Both the position numbers and the translations under genes were made by a program. Positions 276 through 59,340 of a stretch of DNA of 64,000 nucleotides are shown piece by piece. The stretch's first letter is position 1. Each line of letters begins with the position of its first letter. This DNA comes from a virus (Duplodnaviria > Caudoviricetes), in the IMG/VR virus record IMGVR_UViG_3300027374_000458, positions 1 to 64,000 of that record; one strand, written 5' to 3'. The notes below the pieces were generated by a model. It searched no databases and was not told the origin of the DNA. It saw only the letters and a program-made list of their open reading frames with translations.

Positions 276-662
276 TTATCCGGCCGCTTCTGCCAAATAT
301 TTTTCCATCAAGCTATGTAGCAGATCCGTATAGAGCATAGGCACAGTCCCATCAGCGCATATCACTTCCGCATTGTGCTTTTTCAGCCAGTGCAAATAAA
401 CGTCCATCTCCTCCATGTCTCGACCTAAACGCGAGAGTTTTTTTACCAATATCGCATCAGCTTTGCCCTCTTCTATCGCATTGGAAACCGCCTTTAGTCC
501 GGCACGTGAAAAGTCAAGACCGCTACCATGCTCAGACGTAACTCCAGCAATCGTGGATCCTTGCTCTTCTGCATAGCTGATCATATACCTCTCCTGCATA
601 GCCAGGCAGACCGTGTCGGGACGCGCTGTTCGGCAATAAATCCATACTCGTTTTTTGCTCAT
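276..662 (-). CDS. Small resolvase-like protein, catalytic domain only, nucleophile Ser replaced
   Basis: WIYCRTA in place of YxRxS; SGLDFSRAGL and ILVKKLSRLGR motifs; ATGA overlap with the upstream LSR stop. Confidence 0.75.
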   Translation of the reverse strand: MSKKRVWIYCRTARPDTVCLAMQERYMISYAEEQGSTIAGVTSEHGSGLDFSRAGLKAVSNAIEEGKADAILVKKLSRLGRDMEEMDVYLHWLKKHNAEVICADGTVPMLYTDLLHSLMEKYLAEAAG

Positions 663-2275
663 CTTAATTGCCCCTCTTTCAAATGTCCGCATGAAACTAA
701 CTTTTGAAAGTCATCCTGATAATTCCATACAATCTCAATACTTTGGTCAGGGAAAACCCGAACCTGCGTTAGAACATCGGCAACGATTTCATCTGTCAAT
801 CTCTGAACCTCTGCATACTGCTTGAACACATCCACAAAGCGGTTCTGCGATCCAGCATCTGAGCTGTTGTTTTCAATGCTCGCTGTCAGCGATGCAATTC
901 TGGCAGAAAGGTCATCGGCCTCCTCTTTCAAAGCAGTTCGTTGAGAGCAGTATGATTCTTTATTGATCTCTCCTAAAGCAAACGACTCATACAGATTATC
1001 AGACTGCTGCTTTACCTGATTAAGCGTATCTTTGAGAACTCCAAGCTGAACCGACATAGCACGAACATCCTTCCTGTCCCGACGGTGATGTTCCTCCCAT
1101 ATAATGCTGACCTCCAATGCCGCTGCTGCTTGCGCATGAAGTCCGTCCAGAACCAAAGCGAAAAGATCGCTTTCCAATATCTTTGTTCCCTCACACAGAT
1201 AGGTGTCCGTCATGCTGGATGTGCGGCAAATATAATACGGTGCTTTTGCCTCCTTCCGTGCCATGGCGTGGCCGCAAATTCCGCAGCAGAGCTTTTTGCG
1301 TAGCGGCTGCCTGTCAGGAAAACTACCCCGCTCCACATATTCCCGCAAAGCGTCCTGTGCCCGGTCAAATTCTTCCTGTGTGATGATGGCTTCATGTGCG
1401 TGTTCTGTAATAATCCAGTCCTTTTTGCGTACCTTGACACTGTGCTTTTGGCCTATAACATCGTAATACCGTTTCCCATAGACCACCTTTCCCAAATACT
1501 GTTCATCCCGGATGATTCGGATTATTGCGCTGTCTGTCCAATAATTCTCCGCTTGAACGCTGTTCCAGTTTTTCTGTGTACAGCCCATCGCCAGCTTATA
1601 GAGCATGGGGGTCAGAATACCATCATCATTCAGCGCTTTCGCTGTTTGCAGCGCGGACTTTCCGGCTCCTACCATTCGGAAGATGCGCTGTACGATGGCG
1701 GCAGCCGGTGGATCAACCACCAGATGGGCCTTTCTCTGTGGGTCCTTGATATAGCCGTAGGGCGCATAACGGGATACAAAATCGCCGCGCTGCGCCCGCT
1801 GCCTTTTTGCGCCTCGTACTTTGCGCGACAGGTCACGGCTATACAAGTCGTACAGAAGCGCACGGAAGGAGGTGTCCAGGTTGTCCACATCCATAGGACG
1901 TATGCTGTCGATACCATCATTGACCGCAATGAACCGCACGCCAAGGAACGGAAAAATGCGGGAAACATAGTTTTCTACGGTAAGATAATCTCGCCCGAAA
2001 CGGGATAGATCCTTAACGATCACGCATTGGATTCTACCCTGCCGCACCTGTGCGAGCATTTCCTGAACGGCTGGTCGGTCAAAGTTTTTCCCGCTCCAGC
2101 CATCATCGCAAAACTCTATCACCTCGGCTTCAGAAAACTCCGGGATTTTCTCAATATATGCGTTTAGTAAGATCCTCTGATTGGAAATGCTGTTGGATTC
2201 CGCTTTTTTAGCTTCCTTCAGGTCTATGTCCTCCGACGATAATCGGAGATATTTCGCAATTACATAAGCGGTCAC
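659..2275 (-). CDS. Large serine recombinase 3
   Basis: YLRLSSED, DDGWSG, VKDLSRFGRDY, PYGY, CGICG zinc ribbon and a coiled coil. Confidence 0.95.
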   Translation of the reverse strand: MTAYVIAKYLRLSSEDIDLKEAKKAESNSISNQRILLNAYIEKIPEFSEAEVIEFCDDGWSGKNFDRPAVQEMLAQVRQGRIQCVIVKDLSRFGRDYLTVENYVSRIFPFLGVRFIAVNDGIDSIRPMDVDNLDTSFRALLYDLYSRDLSRKVRGAKRQRAQRGDFVSRYAPYGYIKDPQRKAHLVVDPPAAAIVQRIFRMVGAGKSALQTAKALNDDGILTPMLYKLAMGCTQKNWNSVQAENYWTDSAIIRIIRDEQYLGKVVYGKRYYDVIGQKHSVKVRKKDWIITEHAHEAIITQEEFDRAQDALREYVERGSFPDRQPLRKKLCCGICGHAMARKEAKAPYYICRTSSMTDTYLCEGTKILESDLFALVLDGLHAQAAAALEVSIIWEEHHRRDRKDVRAMSVQLGVLKDTLNQVKQQSDNLYESFALGEINKESYCSQRTALKEEADDLSARIASLTASIENNSSDAGSQNRFVDVFKQYAEVQRLTDEIVADVLTQVRVFPDQSIEIVWNYQDDFQKLVSCGHLKEGQLR

Positions 2276-3975
2276 GCCGGTACCTCCTCATGGTTCGCCA
2301 GAAGATGGACCAGAGCGTGATATTCATCCCGGAAACGCAAGGCAACAGAAACACGATCATCCGCGTCGATCTCCACCCGTTCAATCAATGCGTGAGCCAT
2401 TTCTTCCGTCAATTCTGTTTCGGACTCAAACTGTTCACAGGTAATGATCCAAGGATTATCTTCGGTTTTTTTCAGCTCGGACTGCTTCTGCTGCTCTAAA
2501 GCGGCCAGGCGCTCTCCGGCGCTTTTCATATCCTGTTTGTAACGGTGCCGCAGATCCATGTATTCATCTTCAGACATCAGGCGGTCCACATAGTTCTGAT
2601 AGAGACTGTCATAGAGCATCCTCGCACGTTCGAGCGCGTCATTTGCTGCGGCGATTTCCCGTTTCAGCGTCTCCTCATGATTGACTGCTTTAGCGGATCG
2701 GCCGTATTCTGCCGCCAATCTTTTCATGCTGCCAGCCAACGCAATTTCCCGCTGCAAAACATCCCAAAGAATCTCCAGTAGCTTTGTTTCCCGAAGATAC
2801 TTTTTGGGGCAGGAGGACGGATCTTCGGAGTGAGTAAGGCAGATATATGAGTAGTATAGATGACCGCAGCCTTCAGACACATTCTTATATCGGATCATTG
2901 CCTTTTTGCAGTCCGCACAAAAAACCAGTCCACGGAGAATATGGGGAATTGTTCCCAGCTTATCAAAGCGCCCGACTCTCTCCTGATGGACTGCCCGACA
3001 CTTCTCGGCCATCTCTTTAACGGTGAAATAGGTAACCTCATCAATAAGCGGTTCATGCGTGTTAGGAACTACAACCCATTCGGACTTGGGCCGCTTGCAC
3101 ATTTTTTTGCCCTCGGAAAGAACATTGTAGCTGCGGCCCTGAACCATATGGCCAAGATAAGCCTCGCTCGAAAGGATCACTTTAATAACAGGAACATGCC
3201 AAACCGCGTTGGCATAGCGTTCAGCTTTGACCTCCCCTCTCTGATAATGATAGCGGGATGGGGACGGTATCCCCATCTCATTCAGTTTTCGAGCGATTTT
3301 TAGATAACTGGTCCCGGAAGCTCTCCACTGAAAAATCATCTGCACAATGGGCGCGGTCTCCGGGTTCGGTTCCAACTTGTGGCTGTCGGCGGCGCATTTC
3401 TGATAGCCGTATGGAGCCCAGGAGCCTATAAACTCCCCATTCCGCTGCTTTGCGGCTAAAGCGGAGCCGGACTTTCTGGAAATGTCTTTGCTGTATGCGC
3501 TGTTGAAAATATTCTTCAGCGGCACAATATAGCCTGCCTCATTCCTTTCAGCAGTCAGCGTATCAAAATTGTCATTAACCGCAACAAAGCGGACATTCAA
3601 AAACGGGAATATGCGCTCCAGATAGTTGCCGGTTTCCAAATAGTTCCGCCCGAAGCGGGAAAGGTCTTTGACTACAATGCAGTTGATTTTTCCCTTGCGT
3701 ATATCAGACATCAGCCGTTCAAATTCCGGCCTTTCAAAGTTAGTACCAGTCCGTCCGTTATCACAGTATATGCCGCAGCAGGTCATATCCGGCTGGCTTT
3801 CAATGTACTTCAGAACAAGCTCCCTCTGTGCATGGATGGTGTCCGCTCCCGGGTTGCCGCTGTCCTCCACGGAAAGGCGGATATATCCGCCTGTACGATA
3901 GACCTTGCTTTGAGGAACAAAGGATTCTTCTGCTGTGGGCTGCACATAGTTGACCTTGCGCTTCGTCCTTGCCAC
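2272..3975 (-). CDS. Large serine recombinase 2
   Basis: YIRLSVED, DNGRTG, VKDLSRFGRNY, APYGY, CADC zinc ribbon. Confidence 0.95.
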   Translation of the reverse strand: MARTKRKVNYVQPTAEESFVPQSKVYRTGGYIRLSVEDSGNPGADTIHAQRELVLKYIESQPDMTCCGIYCDNGRTGTNFERPEFERLMSDIRKGKINCIVVKDLSRFGRNYLETGNYLERIFPFLNVRFVAVNDNFDTLTAERNEAGYIVPLKNIFNSAYSKDISRKSGSALAAKQRNGEFIGSWAPYGYQKCAADSHKLEPNPETAPIVQMIFQWRASGTSYLKIARKLNEMGIPSPSRYHYQRGEVKAERYANAVWHVPVIKVILSSEAYLGHMVQGRSYNVLSEGKKMCKRPKSEWVVVPNTHEPLIDEVTYFTVKEMAEKCRAVHQERVGRFDKLGTIPHILRGLVFCADCKKAMIRYKNVSEGCGHLYYSYICLTHSEDPSSCPKKYLRETKLLEILWDVLQREIALAGSMKRLAAEYGRSAKAVNHEETLKREIAAANDALERARMLYDSLYQNYVDRLMSEDEYMDLRHRYKQDMKSAGERLAALEQQKQSELKKTEDNPWIITCEQFESETELTEEMAHALIERVEIDADDRVSVALRFRDEYHALVHLLANHEEVPA

Positions 3976-3976
3976 G

Positions 3977-5620
3977 TCAACCCACCTCCCGTTCGGAATG
4001 TGCCTGACGGGCCAATAAGTCGAACAGCCATTGAAACTCGTTCTGCCAGCGGAATACGATTTCTACCCGATGTTCCCGGTACAGCATGATCCGCTCAATC
4101 AGCGTTACAATAACAGACCGATCCAATTCCGTAATATTCTTATGCTTGCGGAACTGATCCATCCATGCGCGATTTTCTGAGGAACCCGCCAACTCCTGGC
4201 TGATTTCCTCCCGGATACTCTCAGCCTGCTCCTCGGCATCCTTCCGACGCCGGGTATATTTAGCTTTCAGATCCTTGTAATCCTCGCGGTCGATGATGCC
4301 ATCGGCCAAATTTTCATAGAGCGATTGGAGCAGGGTCTGGGCCCGCTCAATCTCCTGACGCTTGCGGTCGAGCCGTTTCTGAAGCCGCTGCATATTGGCC
4401 TGACGGAGCAATGCCGTATCCGTCATTTCCAGCAGCTCCGACAGGTCGATCACGCCCCGGATGTGCTGCTTCAGAGAGTCGAGCACGATCTCATTCAACG
4501 CAACATCCCGAAAGCGGTGAGATGAACAGCATGTTTTATCCTGCTTATGCGCGGAGCAAACGTAATATATATACTTCTTATTTCCTGATGATACGGTTTT
4601 TCGCACCATAGAGGCGCCGCATTCCCCACAAAACAGGAGGCCAGAGAAAAACTCGACGGATGCTCCCCCGACGCTGGTGCGGGTATCCAAGGCCAGCACC
4701 TGCTGCATAACCTGGAAATCCATGGGGTCAATGATTGCCTCATGATTGTTTTCCACTACGGCCCATTCTGAACGGGGGCGGTTGACCTGACGCTTGACCC
4801 GGTAGGTAGGAGTTGTCACCCGTCCCTGCTCCAGCGTTCCGATGTAAACGGGATTTTTCAAAATCCGCAGGACTGTTTTGGCGCACCAGCCGGAATCCGT
4901 TTTTTTGCGGAATTTCGTCTTATAGCGCATACCCTGAGAGGTCTTGTAATCCATTGGCGTCGGAATGCCGGCTGAGTTCAACCGGTCAGCAATATCCTGT
5001 GCGCTGATCCCGTCCAGTTTCCAGCGGAAAATATCACGCACTACACCGGCAGCCTCGTCGTCTATCAGAAGACGGTTGTGATCCTCCGGATCCTTTTTAT
5101 AGCCATACGCAGCAAACGCCCCAATAAAATCGCCATGTCGGCGTTTGATCTCCAGATGGCTGCGTGTTTTGATGGAGATGTCCCTGCAATAAGCCTCGTT
5201 CATCAGATTTTTGAAGGGGACAATCAACTCGTCCGATTCCGGGTTACGGTGCAGACTGTCGTAATGGTCGTTGATGGCGATAAAGCGTACACCAAGGAAA
5301 GGGAATATTTTTTCAATATATTCTCCTGCCTCCAAGTGGTCCCGGCCGAAGCGGGACAGATCCTTGACAACAATGCAGTTGACCTTACCTGCTTTGATGT
5401 CAGCAATCATTTCCTGAAATGCTGGCCGCTCAAAATTGGAACCTGTGTATCCGTCGTCAACCTTCATCCCGCACTCCCGAAGATCGGGAGCGCGGCGCAG
5501 ATAATCGCGTATCAGTTCTTTCTGACCCCGGACGCTATTGCTCTCCTCTTTGTCGCCGTCCTCACGGGAGAGCCGGACATATCCACAGGTATTCCACACT
5601 TTAGCTGTGTTTTCGGGCAT
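3977..5620 (-). CDS. Large serine recombinase 1
   Basis: YVRLSRED, DDGYTG, VKDLSRFGRDH, CGECG zinc ribbon; RBS GGGAGG. Confidence 0.95.
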   Translation of the reverse strand: MPENTAKVWNTCGYVRLSREDGDKEESNSVRGQKELIRDYLRRAPDLRECGMKVDDGYTGSNFERPAFQEMIADIKAGKVNCIVVKDLSRFGRDHLEAGEYIEKIFPFLGVRFIAINDHYDSLHRNPESDELIVPFKNLMNEAYCRDISIKTRSHLEIKRRHGDFIGAFAAYGYKKDPEDHNRLLIDDEAAGVVRDIFRWKLDGISAQDIADRLNSAGIPTPMDYKTSQGMRYKTKFRKKTDSGWCAKTVLRILKNPVYIGTLEQGRVTTPTYRVKRQVNRPRSEWAVVENNHEAIIDPMDFQVMQQVLALDTRTSVGGASVEFFSGLLFCGECGASMVRKTVSSGNKKYIYYVCSAHKQDKTCCSSHRFRDVALNEIVLDSLKQHIRGVIDLSELLEMTDTALLRQANMQRLQKRLDRKRQEIERAQTLLQSLYENLADGIIDREDYKDLKAKYTRRRKDAEEQAESIREEISQELAGSSENRAWMDQFRKHKNITELDRSVIVTLIERIMLYREHRVEIVFRWQNEFQWLFDLLARQAHSEREVG

Positions 5621-9117: not shown

Positions 9118-9145
9118 CTACAACATTATTTCTGTTATGTTGTAA
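9118..9145 (-). repeat. Tyrosine recombinase site, left copy (11-6-11, dif-like)
   Basis: Minus strand TTACAACATAA-CAGAAA-TAATGTTGTAG. Confidence 0.75.
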
Positions 9146-9337
9146 ACCGCCTTCGTCACGGCAAAATCCTCTGACAGGATGATACAGCAATGCCAGTGAA
9201 AATAGACAAGATTTGTGTCGATAAGGGTACAAAAATTTAAGGGGAGCAAGATTTATCTTTTCCCCTTGTAAAAACACGTGAATTTTCAAAAGTCGATTAT
9301 TTGAAGTATGAATATTGCACTCCTTTTCCGTCCCGGT

Positions 9338-9365
9338 TTACAACATAACAGAAATTATGTGATAA
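9338..9365 (+). repeat. Tyrosine recombinase site, right copy, inverted, overlapping the recombinase stop codon
   Basis: Plus strand TTACAACATAA-CAGAAA-TTATGTGATAA; 9123-9149 and 9334-9360 match 26/27 as an inverted repeat. Confidence 0.75.
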
Positions 9366-10212
9366 TCAGTCCCAAACGCTCAATCTGGTGGGCGTGAACA
9401 GAACCACTCTCCATCGTGTAAATGCGAGTGGTGTTAATACTGGAATGGCCCAGAATATCAGCCAACCGGGAAATATCTTTTTCAATACCATAATATGTTA
9501 TAGCAAACAAGTGCCGGAGATTATGAGGGAAAACCTTATTAGCCTCAACACCGGCGCTTTCGCATAATGCTTTCATATCACGCCAGATATTAGAGCGATC
9601 CAGCGGATTACCATTCCGAGTGGTGAAAATCGCACCATCGGTTTTGTTCATTTCTTTGATGTATCTGGACAGAACTCTCTGCAATTTCTTTGGCAAAAAA
9701 ATGGTTCGACGTTTCCCCTTATTGTTAATCTCCGTGCGGCCAGTATGAACTGCCTCAACAGTTATAAACTGCAGTTCAGATACCCGGATACCTGTTGCGC
9801 ATATCGTTTGCACCACCAAAGCGAGACGCCGGTTTCCCGCACCTTCTGCGGCATGGACTAAACGCTTATATTCAGCATATGTCAATTCGCGGTTCTCATC
9901 GCGGAACAGTGGCTGCTGGATTTTTAAGGGTTTAACAGTTAAATCAGCCCACCCCATATATTTTAGAAATCCGTTGAGTGACGCCAAAACGGAATTGACA
10001 GTTGCAGTAGAATACTTATCGATTAGAGTGTTTTTCCACTCAATAAGAGTAGATTTAGTCAGTTCCTTACCGCCAAAATATGTAGCAGCTACTTTGAGAT
10101 CGTGGACATACTTTAAAACAGTAGCTGAACTTTTTTCATTTTCCTGCAAATGGGTCGAATAACTGACAATTTCTTCGTGAGTGAGTGCCCTTATGCCTTG
10201 TGTCATACGCAT
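9355..10212 (-). CDS. Tyrosine recombinase (Xer-like)
   Basis: TGIRVSEL (R), NKGKRR (K), HNLRH, LGHSSINTTRIY; RBS GGGAGG before the ATG at 10212. Confidence 0.93.
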   Translation of the reverse strand: MRMTQGIRALTHEEIVSYSTHLQENEKSSATVLKYVHDLKVAATYFGGKELTKSTLIEWKNTLIDKYSTATVNSVLASLNGFLKYMGWADLTVKPLKIQQPLFRDENRELTYAEYKRLVHAAEGAGNRRLALVVQTICATGIRVSELQFITVEAVHTGRTEINNKGKRRTIFLPKKLQRVLSRYIKEMNKTDGAIFTTRNGNPLDRSNIWRDMKALCESAGVEANKVFPHNLRHLFAITYYGIEKDISRLADILGHSSINTTRIYTMESGSVHAHQIERLGLIIT

Positions 10213-10222
10213 GGAAAAAGTC

Positions 10223-10270
10223 CTCCCTATATTCGATACACATAGCGCGCGCTGCATCGAATATAAGGAG
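10223..10270 (-). promoter_or_regulatory. Hairpin sequestering the recombinase RBS
   Basis: CUCCUUAUAUUCGAU pairs with AUCGAAUAUAGGGAG, which contains the SD sequence. Confidence 0.55.
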
Positions 10271-10374
10271 AACTATTGATATGCAAATGGCATTGTTTTA
10301 ATCAAACAGATAAGCAAAAGCAAAATAATAGAAATCCCGTCCAATACATTCCGGGCTTTATGTGTAATTACTAT

Positions 10375-10403
10375 ATTGTACCATGATTCCATATAAAATG
10401 CAA
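10375..10403 (-). promoter_or_regulatory. Sigma-A promoter for the tyrosine recombinase
   Basis: TTGCAT, 17 bp, TACAAT with TG extension. Confidence 0.65.
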
Positions 10404-10409
10404 ACCATT

Positions 10410-13235
10410 TCATAATCCGTATTTTCTCTTTAGGTGCTTGAAGAATTCATTGGCTTCCCTTATTGCAGCATTTGGCAACGGACGCTCTACAAGGTACTTT
10501 GGGAGCTCCAAACCAGATGTGTTTTCATGTTTCCGGCGAAAAACCACTTTCCTCTGTTCCAAGTCAAGATGCTGGATTTCATAGCTCTGCGACTCCCAGC
10601 AAAATGAGATTGGAGAATTGCTATGAACAGGTTCATCAAGGGATACCGTACCACCCACTGTCTCCATTGATGCCCTATCCGTCCAAAATGTTTCGCTTGT
10701 GCTTGCCTCTGTAGGCAATTCTTCCCCAAGCAGCTTCTCAATATCCTTAAAGCGAAATACAACAATATTTTTTTTGCAAAGGCGAAAGTATTCGCGTAAC
10801 CCATCATATGGCTGCTTCAAAATGGAAATTGGCTCTGATACTTTTTCGAGCTTTTCAAGAATCGGTATGGGTTCAGCCTCCGCTTCATCTTGAACAAACC
10901 CTGCACAGGCTGTATGGACATAAGCATATTTCAGGCTCTTATTTGGCGCCTTGGGGTTGACCTCAACTAAAGTAATATCCTGATCCATCAACATGCGCCG
11001 TTCACAATAAAAGCACCGGCCCTCCTGTCTTGTCCAGATACCTTTACGTTCTACGCCGCTCACCTTCTGGTTATCACGCCTACGTTTCAACTGCTCATAA
11101 TAAGTAATATCCAAATATGGCTGATAACCTGTCTTGATTGGAATATGCTGGGCGACATTCATGTCAGAAAGGAAAATAACAGAATGCGTTGGCGTATCCG
11201 GTAGAGCAAAAACATGACGTTCTTGAGAGTCTGTTACCCAATACTTATTTACCAGATGTCCCATCTGACGCGCAGGGTGAAGTTCCCTCACCTTTTCCAG
11301 CAAAAAGGTTTGAACGCTGCTGTCAATGGTGCGAAAAGCCTCCCGCGCATCTGTTACACGATGATAGTTTCCCCAACCGGCCAGTTTGCGGTTTAAGCCA
11401 TCAATCAATTTTAGCTGTGACCCCTTAAAGCCGGAGATATAGCGTTGCAGCCGCGCTTGGAAATTATCTACGGCTCTTTCCGATGGTTCAGATACCAGCA
11501 ATGCGCCATGGTACTTTCGCTGATACCATCGGGATAAAAACTCAAACCCTTCTTCAATATCCACAATGCTGCTTTTGCTCCAATTCAATTCCAGGCCGCG
11601 CACAGCAAGAAACTCTTGTATGACCTCCATAATGACTTGGGCGGATTCAAGGCTTCTTGCGGTAAAAATTAAGTCATCCGCAAATCTCACCATGGAGCCA
11701 TTGCCATAATCTATAGGCCCATTGCCGTAGAGACGATCAAATACGACACCCTGCAGTCCATCCAAGGTCATGTTTCCCAAAATTGGAGACAGCGATGCTC
11801 CCTGTGAAATTCCATACTCCAAAGGCGGAAACAATTCTCCATCGTAAATTGAGCCTGCGCTAAGCGTTTCAGCCAAAACTTTCTTATCAAGCGGGATATT
11901 TCTTATGAGCCAGTCATGGGATATCCTGTCGTAGCACTTCCTTACGTCAGCCCGGACAACAAAGCGTGGGGATCTGTCACCGCTGAAATTTCGCTGAATA
12001 TATGAGTGTGCATCAAAAATCGAACGCCCTTTCCGAAATGCGTAGGATTGCCTGTCGCCCAGTGATTCAGCAACCGGATCAACGGAATATGCGTAGAGCA
12101 CCTGCATGGCTTTATCATAGCAGACTGGGATATTGATCCCTCGCTCTTTCCCATCTGCATTTATGATAATTTTCCTGTATGGCTTTGCATGATACCCCTT
12201 CGAGGTGAGCGAAAGGGCCGCCTCCATTTTTTCTGCATCTGTAGTCCACTTCATACCGTCAATTCCCGGTTCGGAATCCTCTTTCACTACATGGCGAACA
12301 GCCAGAACCTTCGCCCACCGGGAGCGTACCAACACCTTTTGGACTTCTGTAACCTCGGACATGTTTCTGGCATATGTCAACCGGGAAATGCTTTGCTGGT
12401 ATTTCAGCAGCTCCCGTTCTGCACGTTCCCAGTCCATTTCCTGCCATTCTTGGGCCAATTCATTTTGTGATGTTATTCTTTGCGGCGCACGCTCTCGAAT
12501 GGTCAATTCAATCGGGCAGTGATCAGAGCCGAGCACATCCGTTAAGTGCCGGATATCACAAACATCATTTACAATATCCTTTGTGACGAGAAAATAATCC
12601 AATCGCCAGCCCCGGTTTTCCAATCGTTTGTTCAGGCGATTCGACCACCATGTATAGGCTCCCGTCCTCTTGGGATACCAGTTGCGGAATACATCGACAA
12701 AGCCTGCCTCCAATAGAGCTTCAAAGCCTTCCCGTTCCTCTGAACGAAATCCGGGAGGGCTTTCTTCATTACGCAAATTTTCCGGGTAGATGTCAATATA
12801 ATCTCGCGCAACATTGATATCGCCACAAAGTATGACCGGTTTGGGTAACTGCCGGAGGTAAAACAGCAGTTCCGAATCCCACTCCAAACGATACTCCAGC
12901 CGGTCTAAACTATGTTGTGAATTGGGAAAGTACGCATTGACCAGAAAAAAGCCAGGATATTCTAACGTCACAAGACGGCCCTCATCATCGAATTTTTCAA
13001 CGTCAAACCCATATCGGACAGAAAGTGGTTCAATCCTTGACAGTGTAAGCGTACCAGAGTATCCAGGCCGTTTTGCTGCATTCCAATATGCGTGAAATCC
13101 GGACAATTCAAAATCCGCCATGCCCTTTGTTTCCTGGAGGCAGATCACATCAGCATCCGCTTTTTCAAAAAAACGGACAGAATTATGTTTTATATATGCT
13201 CGCAACCCGTTAATATTCCAGGATATGATTTTCAT
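10410..13235 (-). CDS. ExoIII/AP endonuclease fused to a group II intron-type reverse transcriptase, maturase, degenerate HNH and C-terminal domain
   Basis: aa 1-250: SWNING, LQETK, NAYFPN, GDINVA, RLDYFL, GSDHCP. Then an RVT_N-like segment, PGIDG, GISQGASLSP, RFADD (11673-11684), GLELN..KS, LNRKLAGWGNYH and CFYC...HTAC. Confidence 0.95.
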   Translation of the reverse strand: MKIISWNINGLRAYIKHNSVRFFEKADADVICLQETKGMADFELSGFHAYWNAAKRPGYSGTLTLSRIEPLSVRYGFDVEKFDDEGRLVTLEYPGFFLVNAYFPNSQHSLDRLEYRLEWDSELLFYLRQLPKPVILCGDINVARDYIDIYPENLRNEESPPGFRSEEREGFEALLEAGFVDVFRNWYPKRTGAYTWWSNRLNKRLENRGWRLDYFLVTKDIVNDVCDIRHLTDVLGSDHCPIELTIRERAPQRITSQNELAQEWQEMDWERAERELLKYQQSISRLTYARNMSEVTEVQKVLVRSRWAKVLAVRHVVKEDSEPGIDGMKWTTDAEKMEAALSLTSKGYHAKPYRKIIINADGKERGINIPVCYDKAMQVLYAYSVDPVAESLGDRQSYAFRKGRSIFDAHSYIQRNFSGDRSPRFVVRADVRKCYDRISHDWLIRNIPLDKKVLAETLSAGSIYDGELFPPLEYGISQGASLSPILGNMTLDGLQGVVFDRLYGNGPIDYGNGSMVRFADDLIFTARSLESAQVIMEVIQEFLAVRGLELNWSKSSIVDIEEGFEFLSRWYQRKYHGALLVSEPSERAVDNFQARLQRYISGFKGSQLKLIDGLNRKLAGWGNYHRVTDAREAFRTIDSSVQTFLLEKVRELHPARQMGHLVNKYWVTDSQERHVFALPDTPTHSVIFLSDMNVAQHIPIKTGYQPYLDITYYEQLKRRRDNQKVSGVERKGIWTRQEGRCFYCERRMLMDQDITLVEVNPKAPNKSLKYAYVHTACAGFVQDEAEAEPIPILEKLEKVSEPISILKQPYDGLREYFRLCKKNIVVFRFKDIEKLLGEELPTEASTSETFWTDRASMETVGGTVSLDEPVHSNSPISFCWESQSYEIQHLDLEQRKVVFRRKHENTSGLELPKYLVERPLPNAAIREANEFFKHLKRKYGL

Positions 13236-13288
13236 GACAATACCTCCAGCTGCTGCCTAATTCGTATCTGTCTTTAATCACTTATCTC

Positions 13289-13297
13289 ATTATAACA
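13289..13297 (-). promoter_or_regulatory. Extended -10 promoter of the ExoIII-RT gene
   Basis: TGTTATAAT about 55 nt upstream of the ATG; RBS GGAGG. Confidence 0.6.
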
Positions 13298-13401
13298 TAT
13301 ACAAACTTTTCGCAAAATAAATTTGCATTTGTGCTGTGGCTCCACGAAAATACAACAGATTTGATAAAAACCGTCCCAATAATCTCGCTTGCGAATCCCC
13401 C

Positions 13402-13878
13402 TCAAATCGCAAGGTTTATAATTTTCAAGCCTTGTCCACGGGCATAATTTACAGTATATGCTGTACCGCCTTCTGATTTTGTCATATAGCAAACGCAGGT
13501 TCCGCTATGGTCTACCAGATGCCGGTTTCGTTTGAACATGCAGCCACGGGTATATTCCTGGGATGTATAGACAATTTTATCCGCCTGCGCTTTAATCCCC
13601 TCGTAGATCTCCTGATCCCTGCCGCTCCACTTCTGCGCCTGAGAAAGACAGGGAAGGACAAGGATCAGCTTAATTTGAGGAATTTCTTCACGCAGCTTGA
13701 GAACTACCTTTGATGAGACCGTATCGAATCCTAAAGCTCCGCCTGCTCCATAGTAAACAATCTTCTGCTCAACAAGCGTTCGGATCAGGGCTTCCAGCTT
13801 TTTCTCCAAAATCGAAATTTGCCCCTGTGGAATGTTCCTGTGACCTGTAAAACAGCAGGTCATGTCTCTCATTGTCAT
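13402..13878 (-). CDS. SLOG superfamily protein (DUF1273/YpsA-like)
   Basis: CCFTGHR, GGALGFD, IKLILVLPC, MFKRNRHLVD, GGTAYTVNYA. Confidence 0.85.
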   Translation of the reverse strand: MTMRDMTCCFTGHRNIPQGQISILEKKLEALIRTLVEQKIVYYGAGGALGFDTVSSKVVLKLREEIPQIKLILVLPCLSQAQKWSGRDQEIYEGIKAQADKIVYTSQEYTRGCMFKRNRHLVDHSGTCVCYMTKSEGGTAYTVNYARGQGLKIINLAI

Positions 13879-14001
13879 AGCCGCCTCCAAAATGTAATTT
13901 ATAAAATCGTTCTATTATACCACCATAGGGGAATAATAGCCACTATGAGGGATTACAAAAACCGCAAATTCGCTATATTCTTCCCCTATAGGGGAGGTGG
14001 T

Positions 14002-56045: not shown

Positions 56046-56930
56046 TCAAAAACCGTTCCATATCTGACGTCCGCGATACATAAACCACTCGGCGTCATTG
56101 CAATCCTCCGGGGTCAGATCTGCGATCCGTTTCCGGCTGCGGGAGATAAACAGGTCGGAGTCCATTGGGGGCTTTGGGGTCTTGTCCCGGAGCAGTTCAT
56201 CAACTGCAAGCAGCTGCGCATACTCTCCAGGCATACACTCCCTCAGATGTTGGAAAAAATAATTTCTGTGGAATGGACAGAACGTACAGGCCGAAGCCCT
56301 TGTTTCCAGTCCCCAGACATCCCGTATGTAGGCATAGTTGTCTGCCCGCACCAGTTTCATCTCAACCAAAGGGAAGCGATTGACGAACATCGGATTTGTA
56401 CTTTCCTTACATCGCTGCTTTTCCTCATAGCTGAACCCCATGTGCATTTCATGGGCTTTGCTGTCCTCCGGGCGGAGCCGTTGGCCCTTTTTGTAGCCGA
56501 GGACTTCCCAGCGCACATACTTTGAGATTGTCTCGATCTTATAATCAATCGTGCAATTTCTAGGCATTTTTGACTTGTGCCCATCATCTCGCAGCGTCCA
56601 CCAGGGAATGCTGATTGTCCGCCGTTCCCCAAAGTTCTCCATAAAATCCTGATAGAGCGGGGATTCAATGACCTTAAAAAAGATGTCGGCTTCTTTGCAG
56701 GCCTGATGGGTAAATTCCACCTGTTTCATCACCCAGGAGGGTTCCAACCCCAAATCGCAGAATACAACCAGATCATAAACAGGGACCCAGGGGTGTGGCG
56801 ATGGGAGACCGTGCTTCTTCGCTGCGGCGTTTTCGCAGGACATCAGGGCAAGCGTCGTGGACTGCATCCCCGCTCCAAACGACAGAATTTTCAGACCTCG
56901 ACGCCTCTGCGCGGTCAAAATTCCCTCCAT
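56046..56930 (-). CDS. PAPS-reductase-like PP-loop protein (DndC-like superfamily)
   Basis: LSFGAGMQS PP-loop, VFCDLG.EP, RNCT..YK, GFS.EE, FPL, SACTFCPFH. Confidence 0.75.
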   Translation of the reverse strand: MEGILTAQRRRGLKILSFGAGMQSTTLALMSCENAAAKKHGLPSPHPWVPVYDLVVFCDLGLEPSWVMKQVEFTHQACKEADIFFKVIESPLYQDFMENFGERRTISIPWWTLRDDGHKSKMPRNCTIDYKIETISKYVRWEVLGYKKGQRLRPEDSKAHEMHMGFSYEEKQRCKESTNPMFVNRFPLVEMKLVRADNYAYIRDVWGLETRASACTFCPFHRNYFFQHLRECMPGEYAQLLAVDELLRDKTPKPPMDSDLFISRSRKRIADLTPEDCNDAEWFMYRGRQIWNGF

Positions 56931-57697
56931 TCGGTTTCCTCACCGCCGTTCACTTCCTGCGCCATCATAAGGCGGGCTGCAGGCTGGGATAGTTGTACCA
57001 CCAGTGATCCGCCATAATACTGCTTTTCAGCCGCTTCCATCGCGGCGGAAATATCACCGGCGGTTACAGGGAACGCCTGAGATATGTGTTCCTCTATCGT
57101 CACAACATACTGCCGAAGTTCGTTTTCCGGCAGACTGCAAGGGCGGGTATCCGCCCCGTCCTGTTCTGACGCAGCCAGGTGAGAAGTCATACTGCGATTC
57201 TCCTGTGCAGCAGCACACTGCGTAACGGGGCAGGCCTGCATCGTATGTTCCATATCGCGCAAAGCAGACAGCAGGCCATCCGTATAAGCCCTGCACTCCT
57301 TTTGGAGTGTGCGGACGTCCTCTGCGCTTAAAAGCTCAGCGCCGCGAAGTTGATACCGGGCGCCTCCATGCTCAAACACACAGTTATACGGAAGAAACAG
57401 GAATCCCTCTTGAATGGGAACGATTATGCCGCCGCCCTGCATAGAGTCAGAAAAGGGATATTTCCAGATCAGCTGATTGCCAAACCGCTCTGCATAGGCA
57501 TCACGCACCTTGTCCAGGGTTGAATCCAAGCCTCCGTATGTGTCCAGTAGCTTTACAAGCGCATCCTTACTGTACAGATTACTTCTGTTGATTGTAAAAC
57601 CCATGTAGTGGAGTGTGGAATCCGTATTGCCAGAGGGTGTAGTCAACTCCATAGCGTCTACACTGTCCGGTATCTGTCTATTCTTGATCTCACCCAT
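56915..57697 (-). CDS. Hypothetical protein with a DpnD/PcfM-like C-terminus
   Basis: YVVTIEEHISQAFPVTAGDISAAMEAAEKQY; RBS AAGGAG. Confidence 0.6.
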   Translation of the reverse strand: MGEIKNRQIPDSVDAMELTTPSGNTDSTLHYMGFTINRSNLYSKDALVKLLDTYGGLDSTLDKVRDAYAERFGNQLIWKYPFSDSMQGGGIIVPIQEGFLFLPYNCVFEHGGARYQLRGAELLSAEDVRTLQKECRAYTDGLLSALRDMEHTMQACPVTQCAAAQENRSMTSHLAASEQDGADTRPCSLPENELRQYVVTIEEHISQAFPVTAGDISAAMEAAEKQYYGGSLVVQLSQPAARLMMAQEVNGGEETEWREF

Positions 57698-58451
57698 TTG
57701 CAGTCTCCTTATCACAAATGCACTGCCCTAAAAGTTCATCCTGATTGACCAGGATACCGGCCGTACCACAGCAAAGGAATTTGTCGGCATCAGAGCCGCT
57801 ACTGCAGTGAGTTACACCATAGGTGGAGAAAAACTCATCGGGGATCTCCGTCTCTACATCACCCCAGTTGAAATCCTCGCAGGTATCCTCATAGGCTCGT
57901 TTCCCGGCCTCGGTCTGGAGGAAATCGCAGATAACTTTCCGCAGGTAGGCTTCACAGGCTGCCTCACTTAGCTCCGGAAGCCGATCCTGTGCAATCAGAA
58001 AGGTAGAATAGTACAACTCGTTATTCGGCCCTTCTTGCCGCTGGCGAATGACCGTAACAGCATACATCGCTTTGCTTCCTGTAAACCAGACGCCATCGTC
58101 CGCAGCGTGGGATGCCTCCACAACGAAGGGCAACGTCAACGACACGAGCTTCCGGCCCAGAGATTGAGAAAGTTCCCAGACCGGGTATTCACCAAAATCA
58201 TTTACATCCCGCTCATAGTCATCAGCTTGGAGGGCCGTGAAGATGACCTCCAAGGCTTCACGGGATAAAGGTGTCTCCAGGAGCTTCAAGCTCCAGCTGT
58301 CGCAGTTGGTCTCTCCAACGGCCTGGGCCAGGGTGAACCGGCCGAAAAAGGCAGTCAAAAGGGCAGAACACATTTCACTTAATTGTGCCCAAGTGAAGAA
58401 GTGGGCCTGGCAGGGAGTTCCTGTCAGACTTGGCTTTGGGAACGTGAACAT
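57690..58451 (-). CDS. Hypothetical protein
   Basis: RBS AAGGAG. Confidence 0.65.
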   Translation of the reverse strand: MFTFPKPSLTGTPCQAHFFTWAQLSEMCSALLTAFFGRFTLAQAVGETNCDSWSLKLLETPLSREALEVIFTALQADDYERDVNDFGEYPVWELSQSLGRKLVSLTLPFVVEASHAADDGVWFTGSKAMYAVTVIRQRQEGPNNELYYSTFLIAQDRLPELSEAACEAYLRKVICDFLQTEAGKRAYEDTCEDFNWGDVETEIPDEFFSTYGVTHCSSGSDADKFLCCGTAGILVNQDELLGQCICDKETANG

Positions 58452-58500
58452 AAAATCTCTCCTTCTTGTTGTAATTCGCTTCACGCACCGGACATTTCGT

Positions 58501-59340
58501 TCAGCTTGCATAGAATACCCAGCGCAGTTTATCTCCCACCGGATACTGCTTTGTGTTCCGGGGCCTGGAGGGGGAATCCCACCCGGTTCCTGTACTTTTC
58601 ACAATGCCATCCGGTTGAAAGCCCACTGCCCGCAGGCTGCTTCCACTTTCTGCCGGCAGCGTGTAGGTAAGAAACCGGCGATAGCCCATCTCGCGCCCGA
58701 TACGGATCGCGCGGGCATAGAGGTTGCTGCATACATCGGCATAGCGCGGATCGGTGCAGCAGCGGTTGATTTCCAGCGTCTCGCCATCCATCTGATGCCG
58801 GGCCTTTGGTATGCTTGCTACAGCCACGCCTACGGGCTCCGGCTCCCCAGCCACCCGCAGGCAGATGGAGAATTTATGGAACTTCGGCCCGGCATTGTGC
58901 CGGTGGTGCCGGTCAATATAAGCACCGGCCTCGCTCAGTGTGATAGGTTCTGCCTCCAGCTTTGTAATCAGGCTGGAAGTGGAACCATCCACGCAGTACA
59001 GACGGCCATAGCCGTCCTCCGTATCCGCAATCACATAATTTCCGCATTTGTGCAGCACAGGTAAGGTCTGCTGGCGCCGCTTGTCTTTCAGGTGCATCTT
59101 CTGTGCCGGTATTTCTGATAAAATGTGTTCTACCGGCTCCGGCAACATCGGAAACGTCTGCAAGACCGGATTTTCCAACGCCTGCCCGGGATTGCCGCAG
59201 TGGAACGCACGCAGGTTATAGGGCATCCGCCATTGGAGACTATCCATCAGCCGATCAAAAGCGGCATCGTCCATCGGCGATGAAGCGCGGTAAGACCGGC
59301 CGTTCAGCTGCACAAGGAAAACGTGGTATGTGTCCCACAT
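58501..59340 (-). CDS. Unknown N-terminal domain fused to an XF1762/Mom-like GNAT domain
   Basis: ITLSEAGAYIDRHHRH...VGVAV..P.AR...LEINRCCT....CSNLY.......GY....TYTL..ESGSSLRAVGF. Confidence 0.75.
   Translation of the reverse strand: MWDTYHVFLVQLNGRSYRASSPMDDAAFDRLMDSLQWRMPYNLRAFHCGNPGQALENPVLQTFPMLPEPVEHILSEIPAQKMHLKDKRRQQTLPVLHKCGNYVIADTEDGYGRLYCVDGSTSSLITKLEAEPITLSEAGAYIDRHHRHNAGPKFHKFSICLRVAGEPEPVGVAVASIPKARHQMDGETLEINRCCTDPRYADVCSNLYARAIRIGREMGYRRFLTYTLPAESGSSLRAVGFQPDGIVKSTGTGWDSPSRPRNTKQYPVGDKLRWVFYAS

Follow-up and report, generated by a model that had tools for sequence, protein, structure and literature searches.

Animal-gut bacteria carry, on mobile elements, a widespread family of proteins in which an AP (apurinic/apyrimidinic) endonuclease is joined to a reverse transcriptase (RT) of the group II intron type, and this family is undescribed in the searchable literature. 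The member analysed here, which we call APE-RT, is encoded on the minus strand at positions 10410-13235 of a 64,000-nucleotide (nt) stretch of DNA (the window, meaning this whole stretch at its full length) from a mouse-gut bacterial mobile element. The window was taken from IMG/VR record IMGVR_UViG_3300027374_000458, a 'provirus' of 72 kb, 53% complete, with one APE-RT copy. The architecture is conserved, the two enzymes are linked, intron RNA is absent from the loci searched and the genes travel on mobile elements. For this combination we tentatively favour a function in DNA repair or damage tolerance.

An AP endonuclease fused to a group II-type reverse transcriptase

The gene is one unbroken open reading frame (ORF) of 941 amino acids (aa). 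Pfam models match the nuclease (Exo_endo_phos, aa 4-239, 5e-25) and the RT core (RVT_1, aa 360-567, 4.5e-25); the complete domain layout is given in Table 1. With 264 bits against a cutoff of 99, the nuclease passes the curated ExoIII/Xth/APE1 family cutoff of the NCBIfam xth model (TIGR00633), and the NCBIfam group II RT/maturase model scores 217.6 bits, under its cutoff of 300. A preliminary description of the gene, made from the letters and translations alone, had proposed an uninterrupted APE-RT fusion with a complete ExoIII/APE domain N-terminal to a group II-class RT and thumb/maturase. The frame is present as described, and the Pfam and NCBIfam matches agree on the domains. All catalytic motifs named there were found: in family alignments of 17 and 48 sequences, the nuclease residues N7/N9, E35, Y102, D139/N141, D213 and D238/H239 and the RT motifs PGIDG, ISQGASLSP and RFADD (D520/D521) are invariant or nearly so. 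In the predicted full-length structure (pLDDT 83.5, pTM 0.65), a disordered 6-residue hinge separates nuclease and RT.

The nuclease aligns end to end with ExoA of Bacillus subtilis (5cfe; 6e-78, 47-50% identity), and its predicted fold superposes on ExoA with a template-modelling (TM) score of 0.91, normalised by ExoA. It also aligns end to end with Helicobacter pylori XthA and vertebrate APE1, with gaps shown of only 1-4 residues. Its YTWW...GWRLDYF stretch corresponds to YTFW...GWRLDYF of zebrafish Ape (PDB 2o3c) in the alignment, in a region that we take to be the abasic-sugar pocket of APE1. Judging from these full-length alignments and the aligned pocket stretch, the domain looks like a working AP endonuclease, and not like the nickase of a long interspersed nuclear element (LINE). 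Every catalytic residue of ExoA, XthA and human APE1 is conserved together with this stretch, the difference being that in APE-RT the nuclease is covalently tethered to a polymerase. Enzymes of the ExoIII family incise on the 5' side of abasic sites, remove blocks from 3' ends and, at nicks, digest DNA from the 3' end; ExoIII of Escherichia coli additionally has RNase H activity.

The RT part (aa 252-762) matches the RT of the group IIB intron T.el4h (6me0_C; 6e-87), on which its predicted structure superposes with TM scores of 0.85-0.91, and it is 37-39% identical to the RTs of natural introns from Streptococcus and Clostridia (L055-L080). With such intron RT/maturases APE-RT shares the RT0 extension, RT1-7, the thumb (X) and a DNA-binding region with CxxC...HxxC zinc ligands. 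In contrast to them, it lacks intron RNA, has a promoter of its own and has gained an AP endonuclease at its N terminus and a DUF7662 domain at its C terminus. The HNH domain behind the thumb has been reduced to a remnant, in which the zinc ligands C741, C744, H774 and C777 are invariant but the catalytic 'IHHI' of T.el4h stands opposite 'LVEV' (family consensus LVE), so that the catalytic histidine pair is lost. Matches of aa 720-787 to HNH-domain folds are weak (Z 4.4-4.8).

Relatives match DUF7662 (PF24698) at their C-terminal ~135 aa; the window protein itself gave no match to the Pfam DUF7662 model at E 0.01. The domain is found too as small stand-alone proteins, and the contigs with two of these are short and uninformative as to context; a search of the Atlas yielded the name DUF7662 and nothing more. 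The structure model of the C-terminal region has a pLDDT of 80. Within it, aa 807-906 produced weak winged-helix matches in VIA-align (RepE, Z 5.2; Pi, Z 4.8), and a Foldseek search of the model against PDB returned nothing at E<=0.001. On the model, the domain is possibly a winged helix. Neither the HNH remnant, nor this C-terminal domain, nor the gene's own promoter figures in the preliminary description.

Absence of intron RNA and low copy number

Rfam searches detected no group II RNA in the window at the gathering score, none at E<=1 around the gene and none in seven other APE-RT loci; a control intron in locus L056 was detected (71 bits), with matches to domain V and D1-D4. In the complete genome G001, which has two APE-RT copies, all nine domain V copies (9/9) adjoin ordinary intron RTs and none adjoins APE-RT. 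The spacer upstream of the window gene is only 166 nt long. The RT is thus intron-less. It has in common with RTs of the G2L type that its nearest relatives are group II RTs and that intron RNA is absent; of the hallmarks of the proteins that group II introns encode it has the RT extension, RT1-7 and maturase, but neither a position inside intron RNA nor a functional HNH.

Host genomes carry between one and four divergent copies of the family (five genomes). Partial matches were found in three of them: G004 C4 (aa 294-538), G003 C1 (aa 209-273) and G005 C26 (363-788). The last of these was considered as a truncated APE-RT copy and rejected, since domain V follows directly and marks an ordinary decayed intron.

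Distribution and evolution of the family

More than 100 full-length homologues (42-88% identity) have the same architecture, so the fusion is conserved and widespread and is neither a singleton nor an assembly chimera. They come from animal-gut members of the Bacillota, Bacteroidota, Actinomycetota, Synergistota and Pseudomonadota, with carriers in Oscillospiraceae, Lachnospiraceae, Rikenellaceae, Alistipes, Parabacteroides, Muribaculaceae, Eggerthellaceae, Selenomonadales, Succinivibrio and Fretibacterium. Among cultured bacteria, copies are present in Flintibacter muris DSM 110149 and Bengtsoniella intestinalis BP47G. In records with one genome per species, at least 509 among the 600 stretches listed encode a relative, ordinary group II intron RTs counted in, and of the 79 loci retained, about 50 are at or near full length. 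The full-length fusion was not found in curated phage and plasmid collections, and IMG/VR holds only 4-5 full-length fusions among 2.9 million contigs. In public records, such proteins go under no other names than 'exodeoxyribonuclease III' or 'RNA-directed DNA polymerase'. The preliminary description knew of no characterised bacterial APE-RT; in agreement with this, RT surveys, reviews, recent work and full-text searches, a coverage outside which subscription journals lie, yielded no description of the fusion.

At ten loci, the two enzymes are encoded by separate adjoining genes, one xth-like (~255 aa) and one for the RT (690-710 aa), which in most cases overlap by 4 nt (ATGA). In a tree built on the RT part, for which the closest intron class served as sole outgroup and three broken or near-duplicate loci were omitted, fused and split forms make up one clade (SH-aLRT 100) that a long branch separates from the closest true intron RTs. 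Split forms lie at the base and are interleaved with fused ones as well, which amounts to four state changes, at least two of them forced. Members from outside the Bacillota are nested within Bacillota, pointing to horizontal spread. The ratio of nonsynonymous to synonymous divergence (dN/dS) is 0.02-0.10 in nearly every domain and pair, the HNH remnant and the C-terminal domain included (the latter 0.03-0.10 in most pairs); the domains of APE-RT are under strong purifying selection.

A possible role in repair or damage tolerance

Our preferred reading, held tentatively, is that APE-RT is a repair or damage-tolerance enzyme, serving the element or the host, in which an intron-less RT is coupled to an AP endonuclease. 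Its ancestor would have been a group IIB-type intron RT that was domesticated and lost its intron, while its own HNH decayed to a zinc knuckle. This RT would have been joined to a bacterial AP endonuclease/3'-5' exonuclease of the ExoA/APE1 type, as an adjacent gene at first and by fusion afterwards, and would be expressed from its own promoter as cargo of integrative and conjugative elements (ICEs) or prophage-like elements of gut anaerobes. The nuclease may incise at abasic sites or trim blocked or mismatched 3' ends, leaving a 3'-OH. RTs of the group II type use RNA or DNA as template when they extend 3' ends of DNA, and the tethered RT could extend this 3'-OH on either kind of template, with the zinc knuckle and the winged-helix-like C-terminal domain holding the DNA. 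Such synthesis would serve repair or damage tolerance of the element or its host, as with G2L4 and PrimPol-RT. The hand-over of the 3' end from nuclease to RT, the template and the biological role are what we infer. The roles listed in the preliminary description (repair at abasic sites, TPRT-like retrotransposition, mutagenesis or defence) make up a range too wide to confirm all together.

Two other intron-derived enzymes provide the closest comparisons. Similar to APE-RT, G2L4 of Pseudomonas aeruginosa is an intron-less, domesticated group II-type RT that has kept its thumb; it is an enzyme of ~420 aa with a YIDD motif and no nuclease, whereas APE-RT has 941 aa, FADD and two extra domains. 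G2L4 is reported to act in double-strand break repair, by microhomology-mediated end joining, so that a role in repair is demonstrated for G2L4 and proposed for APE-RT. PrimPol-RT (PPRT) of E. coli likewise combines an N-terminal DNA-end-handling enzyme with a group II-like RT and a long C-terminal domain. Its N-terminal domain is a primase-polymerase with exonuclease activity, that of APE-RT an AP endonuclease with the endonuclease/exonuclease/phosphatase (EEP) fold. PPRT is reported to act in the oxidative-damage response and is linked to oxidative damage and defence.

Some neighbours lean towards repair, namely a Y-family polymerase at 5 of 50 loci and an NAD-dependent ligase on the window element. 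Several points weigh against a repair function. No repair gene is an obligatory neighbour at these 50 loci, a SLOG protein is the most frequent neighbour (32% of loci), and restriction systems adjoin some loci; with such neighbours, conflict systems fit as well as repair. Moreover, it is from sequence that we infer the coupling of nicking to priming.

Alternative explanations

A less probable but serious candidate is an enzyme of mobile-element conflict, acting in anti-phage defence or in anti-defence and establishment, possibly together with the upstream YpsA/SLOG protein. In a defence system the RT would make a cDNA product, with the nuclease as effector or processor; in an anti-defence system the enzyme would mend abasic or nicked DNA inflicted by host defences on the incoming element. 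Consistent with either form, APE-RT was always cargo of integrative elements at the loci studied, the gene recurs as a discrete unit in unrelated contexts, YpsA/SLOG genes accompany it across several RT subclades, and MmeI, type III restriction genes and an NYN nuclease are found among its neighbours. Many intron-less RTs are defence proteins, according to a review. However, matches to DRT, UG and Abi models are weak or generic and lie under the curated cutoffs (Drt3a 30 bits against 200, Drt2 23 against 390, retron 26 against 235), and in PADLOC the top matches are to generic RT or RT-Cas1 models. The nuclease resembles a housekeeping AP endonuclease and not a toxin, the upstream spacers of 40-250 nt are filled by promoters with no conserved region of the size of a noncoding RNA, and no partner is obligatory.

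APE-RT and LINE-1 ORF2p have an EEP-fold endonuclease, an RT and a C-terminal nucleic-acid-binding region in the same order, and a parallel history in which a C-terminal endonuclease gave way to an N-terminal APE. The LINE ORF2p-like architecture noted in the preliminary description stands, as a convergent one: the nuclease shares ~50% identity with bacterial ExoA, and the RT belongs to the group II type. The origins are separate, as the alignment with ORF2p reaches 15% identity compared with 47-50% for ExoA, and APE-RT comes without a multicopy element, ORF1 or 3' tail. Of the features that define LINEs, an N-terminal APE followed by an RT in one polypeptide is present, but the RT is not in the non-LTR (long terminal repeat) clade, nor the nuclease in the LINE endonuclease lineage. 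We consider it rather unlikely, though clearly less so than the two readings that follow, that this is a true nick-and-prime family, in which an abasic site or nick would be the point where the AP endonuclease opens the DNA and the tethered RT copies RNA into it, giving RNA-templated repair or occasional cDNA insertion. An autonomous LINE-like retroelement, whose nuclease would nick the target and whose RT would copy its own mRNA at the nick (target-primed reverse transcription, TPRT), is very improbable. The domain order is that of ORF2p, the model is colinear with human ORF2p (9hdr) over 902 columns, and homology between copies from different contexts breaks off near the ORF. Yet the superposition on ORF2p is poor (TM 0.28, root-mean-square deviation 21 A), the nuclease is a typical AP endonuclease, homology boundaries vary with a patchy synonymous divergence (dS) that points to recombination between copies, and a second promoter takes the place of a 3' tail after the stop. 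One of the three partial matches, that in G005, is an ordinary decayed intron. Signs of LINE-like proliferation (5' truncations, target-site duplications, a 3' tail) were not seen in the five genomes, where duplications were not exhaustively searched. TPRT-like retrotransposition, which had been put forward earlier, thus finds no support, given 1-4 divergent copies per genome, a gene with its own promoter and no group II RNA near the tested copies. Least probable of all is a trans-acting maturase or mobility protein for ORF-less group II introns, in which the AP endonuclease would replace HNH in bottom-strand cleavage. The RT0 extension and the maturase/thumb are fully kept, and for a few of the domain V copies in the five genomes no adjoining RT is listed (G005 C18, G002 C8, G002 C1). 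Against it, there is no intron RNA in the window, in the seven Rfam-searched loci or beside the two G001 copies, the family forms a clade of its own on its long branch, and an AP endonuclease does not recognise a homing site by its sequence.

Expression signals and recombination around the gene

By sequence, the APE-RT gene has its own predicted promoter (Table 1), which a consensus scan passed over because of its 15-nt spacer; comparable promoters precede homologues. No LexA or Cheo box was seen by eye in the upstream regions, and no terminator was found after the gene. In RNA libraries of two studies, contigs cover the recombinase gene and end at 10338-10345, near the second promoter; over APE-RT itself these libraries give short, low-depth pieces only.

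DNA homology between copies in unrelated contexts stops near the ORF, at -13 to -60 and at +57 to +72. These sharp ends were considered as element termini and rejected: the end points differ between pairs, and dS varies over the gene as a mosaic (for two copies of one genome, 0.10 in the RT core and 1.0-1.8 at the 3' end), which argues for recombination between paralogous copies and not for the termini of a retroelement.

Loci L006 and L008 have flanks that are 99% identical and an APE-RT gene that, at 97%, is more diverged than they are, and the promoter region ~100-150 nt before the start is unalignable; the region upstream of the gene looks like a local recombination hotspot. A segment of 160-175 nt (80-87% identical) lies 130-290 nt upstream of APE-RT in several loci and ~8 kb upstream in L010.

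Table 1. Features of the APE-RT gene and its surroundings. Positions refer to the window unless a locus is named.
Feature	Position	Strand	Basis or remark
APE-RT gene	10410..13235	-	one open frame, 941 aa
ExoIII/ExoA/APE1-type AP endonuclease domain, aa 1-246	12498..13235	-	TIGR00633 at 1.3e-78
RVT_N (RT0 N-terminal extension of group II-type RTs), aa 264-343	12207..12446	-	Pfam
RT fingers/palm (RVT_1), aa 360-567, active site RFADD	11535..12158	-	Pfam, motifs
Maturase/thumb (GIIM), aa 591-666	11238..11465	-	Pfam
DNA-binding region and degenerate HNH, ~aa 700-790	10866..11138	-	T.el4h alignment, invariant Zn ligands
C-terminal domain, DUF7662 type, ~aa 807-941	10413..10817	-	homologue matches to PF24698
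Predicted APE-RT promoter, sigma70-type: TTGCGA, 15 nt, extended -10 TGTTATAAT	13289..13315	-	read from sequence
Ribosome-binding site GGAGG of the APE-RT gene	13243-13247	-	read from sequence
Predicted second promoter directly after the APE-RT stop, reading into the tyrosine recombinase gene	10375..10404	-	sequence scan
YpsA/SLOG-family gene directly upstream	13402..13890	-	recurrent neighbour, 16/50 loci
Shared upstream segment	L006 7715-7872; L010 31-193; L012 7710-7880		

The element and its neighbouring genes

On the minus strand, the order around the gene is three large serine recombinases, DUF6551 and ParB-like genes, a tyrosine recombinase, APE-RT and YpsA/SLOG, beyond which lies a divergent gene of the XRE-type helix-turn-helix (HTH) family. 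The arm past the HTH gene encodes YqaJ, RecD2, a clamp-like protein, a primase-YodL protein, PcfK/PcfJ, the NAD-dependent ligase, a ParM-like protein and a methylase-SNF2 protein. The window stretch is present in mouse-gut metagenomes of at least eight studies. None of the ten large window ORFs tested (0/10) matches a phage structural family in PHROGs, and the element therefore looks at least as much ICE-like as phage-like. It may be conjugative or phage-plasmid-like, and not a classical prophage. The three serine recombinase genes (538, 567 and 547 aa) stand in tandem at one element end, at 659-5620, and the region 14000-52000 holds PcfK/PcfJ, two YodL-domain proteins, the ParM-like actin, the methylase-SNF2 helicase, RecD2, YqaJ and the NAD-dependent ligase.

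The preliminary description had called for searches for the same fusion and its neighbourhoods. They recovered the family and a set of recurring neighbours, none of them obligatory: YpsA/SLOG at 16 of the 50 loci, a tyrosine recombinase at 7, the Y-family polymerase at 5, NYN at 4 and MmeI at 2. The layout of HTH, divergent YpsA, in some cases a small sigma-like gene, and APE-RT recurs at 43% protein identity; the upstream YpsA/SLOG protein is a possible partner of APE-RT. In L008, L027 and L036, APE-RT is followed by a full-length restriction-modification gene of the MmeI type (917-926 aa), and a 166-aa remnant of it is left in L006, L007 and L028 after a ~2.3-kb deletion.

Downstream of APE-RT, 27-nt inverted repeats (96% complementary) at 9123-9149 and 9334-9360 flank a 184-bp segment that overlaps and passes the stop of the tyrosine recombinase gene (9355-10257, minus strand). 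In the public run X15, contigs are joined on opposite strands at 9149/9333 and 9150/9334, so that the segment occurs in both orientations and constitutes an invertible switch, which the tyrosine recombinase probably runs. A minus-strand cluster at 56046-59340 gave weak-to-moderate PHROG matches to PAPS-reductase-like and Mom-like DNA modification proteins, and by these matches the element may modify its own DNA.

Implications

Non-LTR retrotransposons are believed to descend from group II intron RTs, with the C-terminal endonuclease swapped for an N-terminal APE. In APE-RT, bacteria show the same endonuclease swap, made independently and conserved across phyla. Should the nick-and-prime mechanism prove true, the family would be a living, independent re-run of the step from a group II-type RT to an APE-type LINE. 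It offers a tractable bacterial system for cooperation between an AP endonuclease and an RT, and, with G2L4 and PrimPol-RT as the first two, would be a third example of an intron-derived RT put to use in DNA-end chemistry. The compact layout of putative nickase plus RT in APE-RT is of interest, too, as a natural counterpart to prime-editing-like enzymes.

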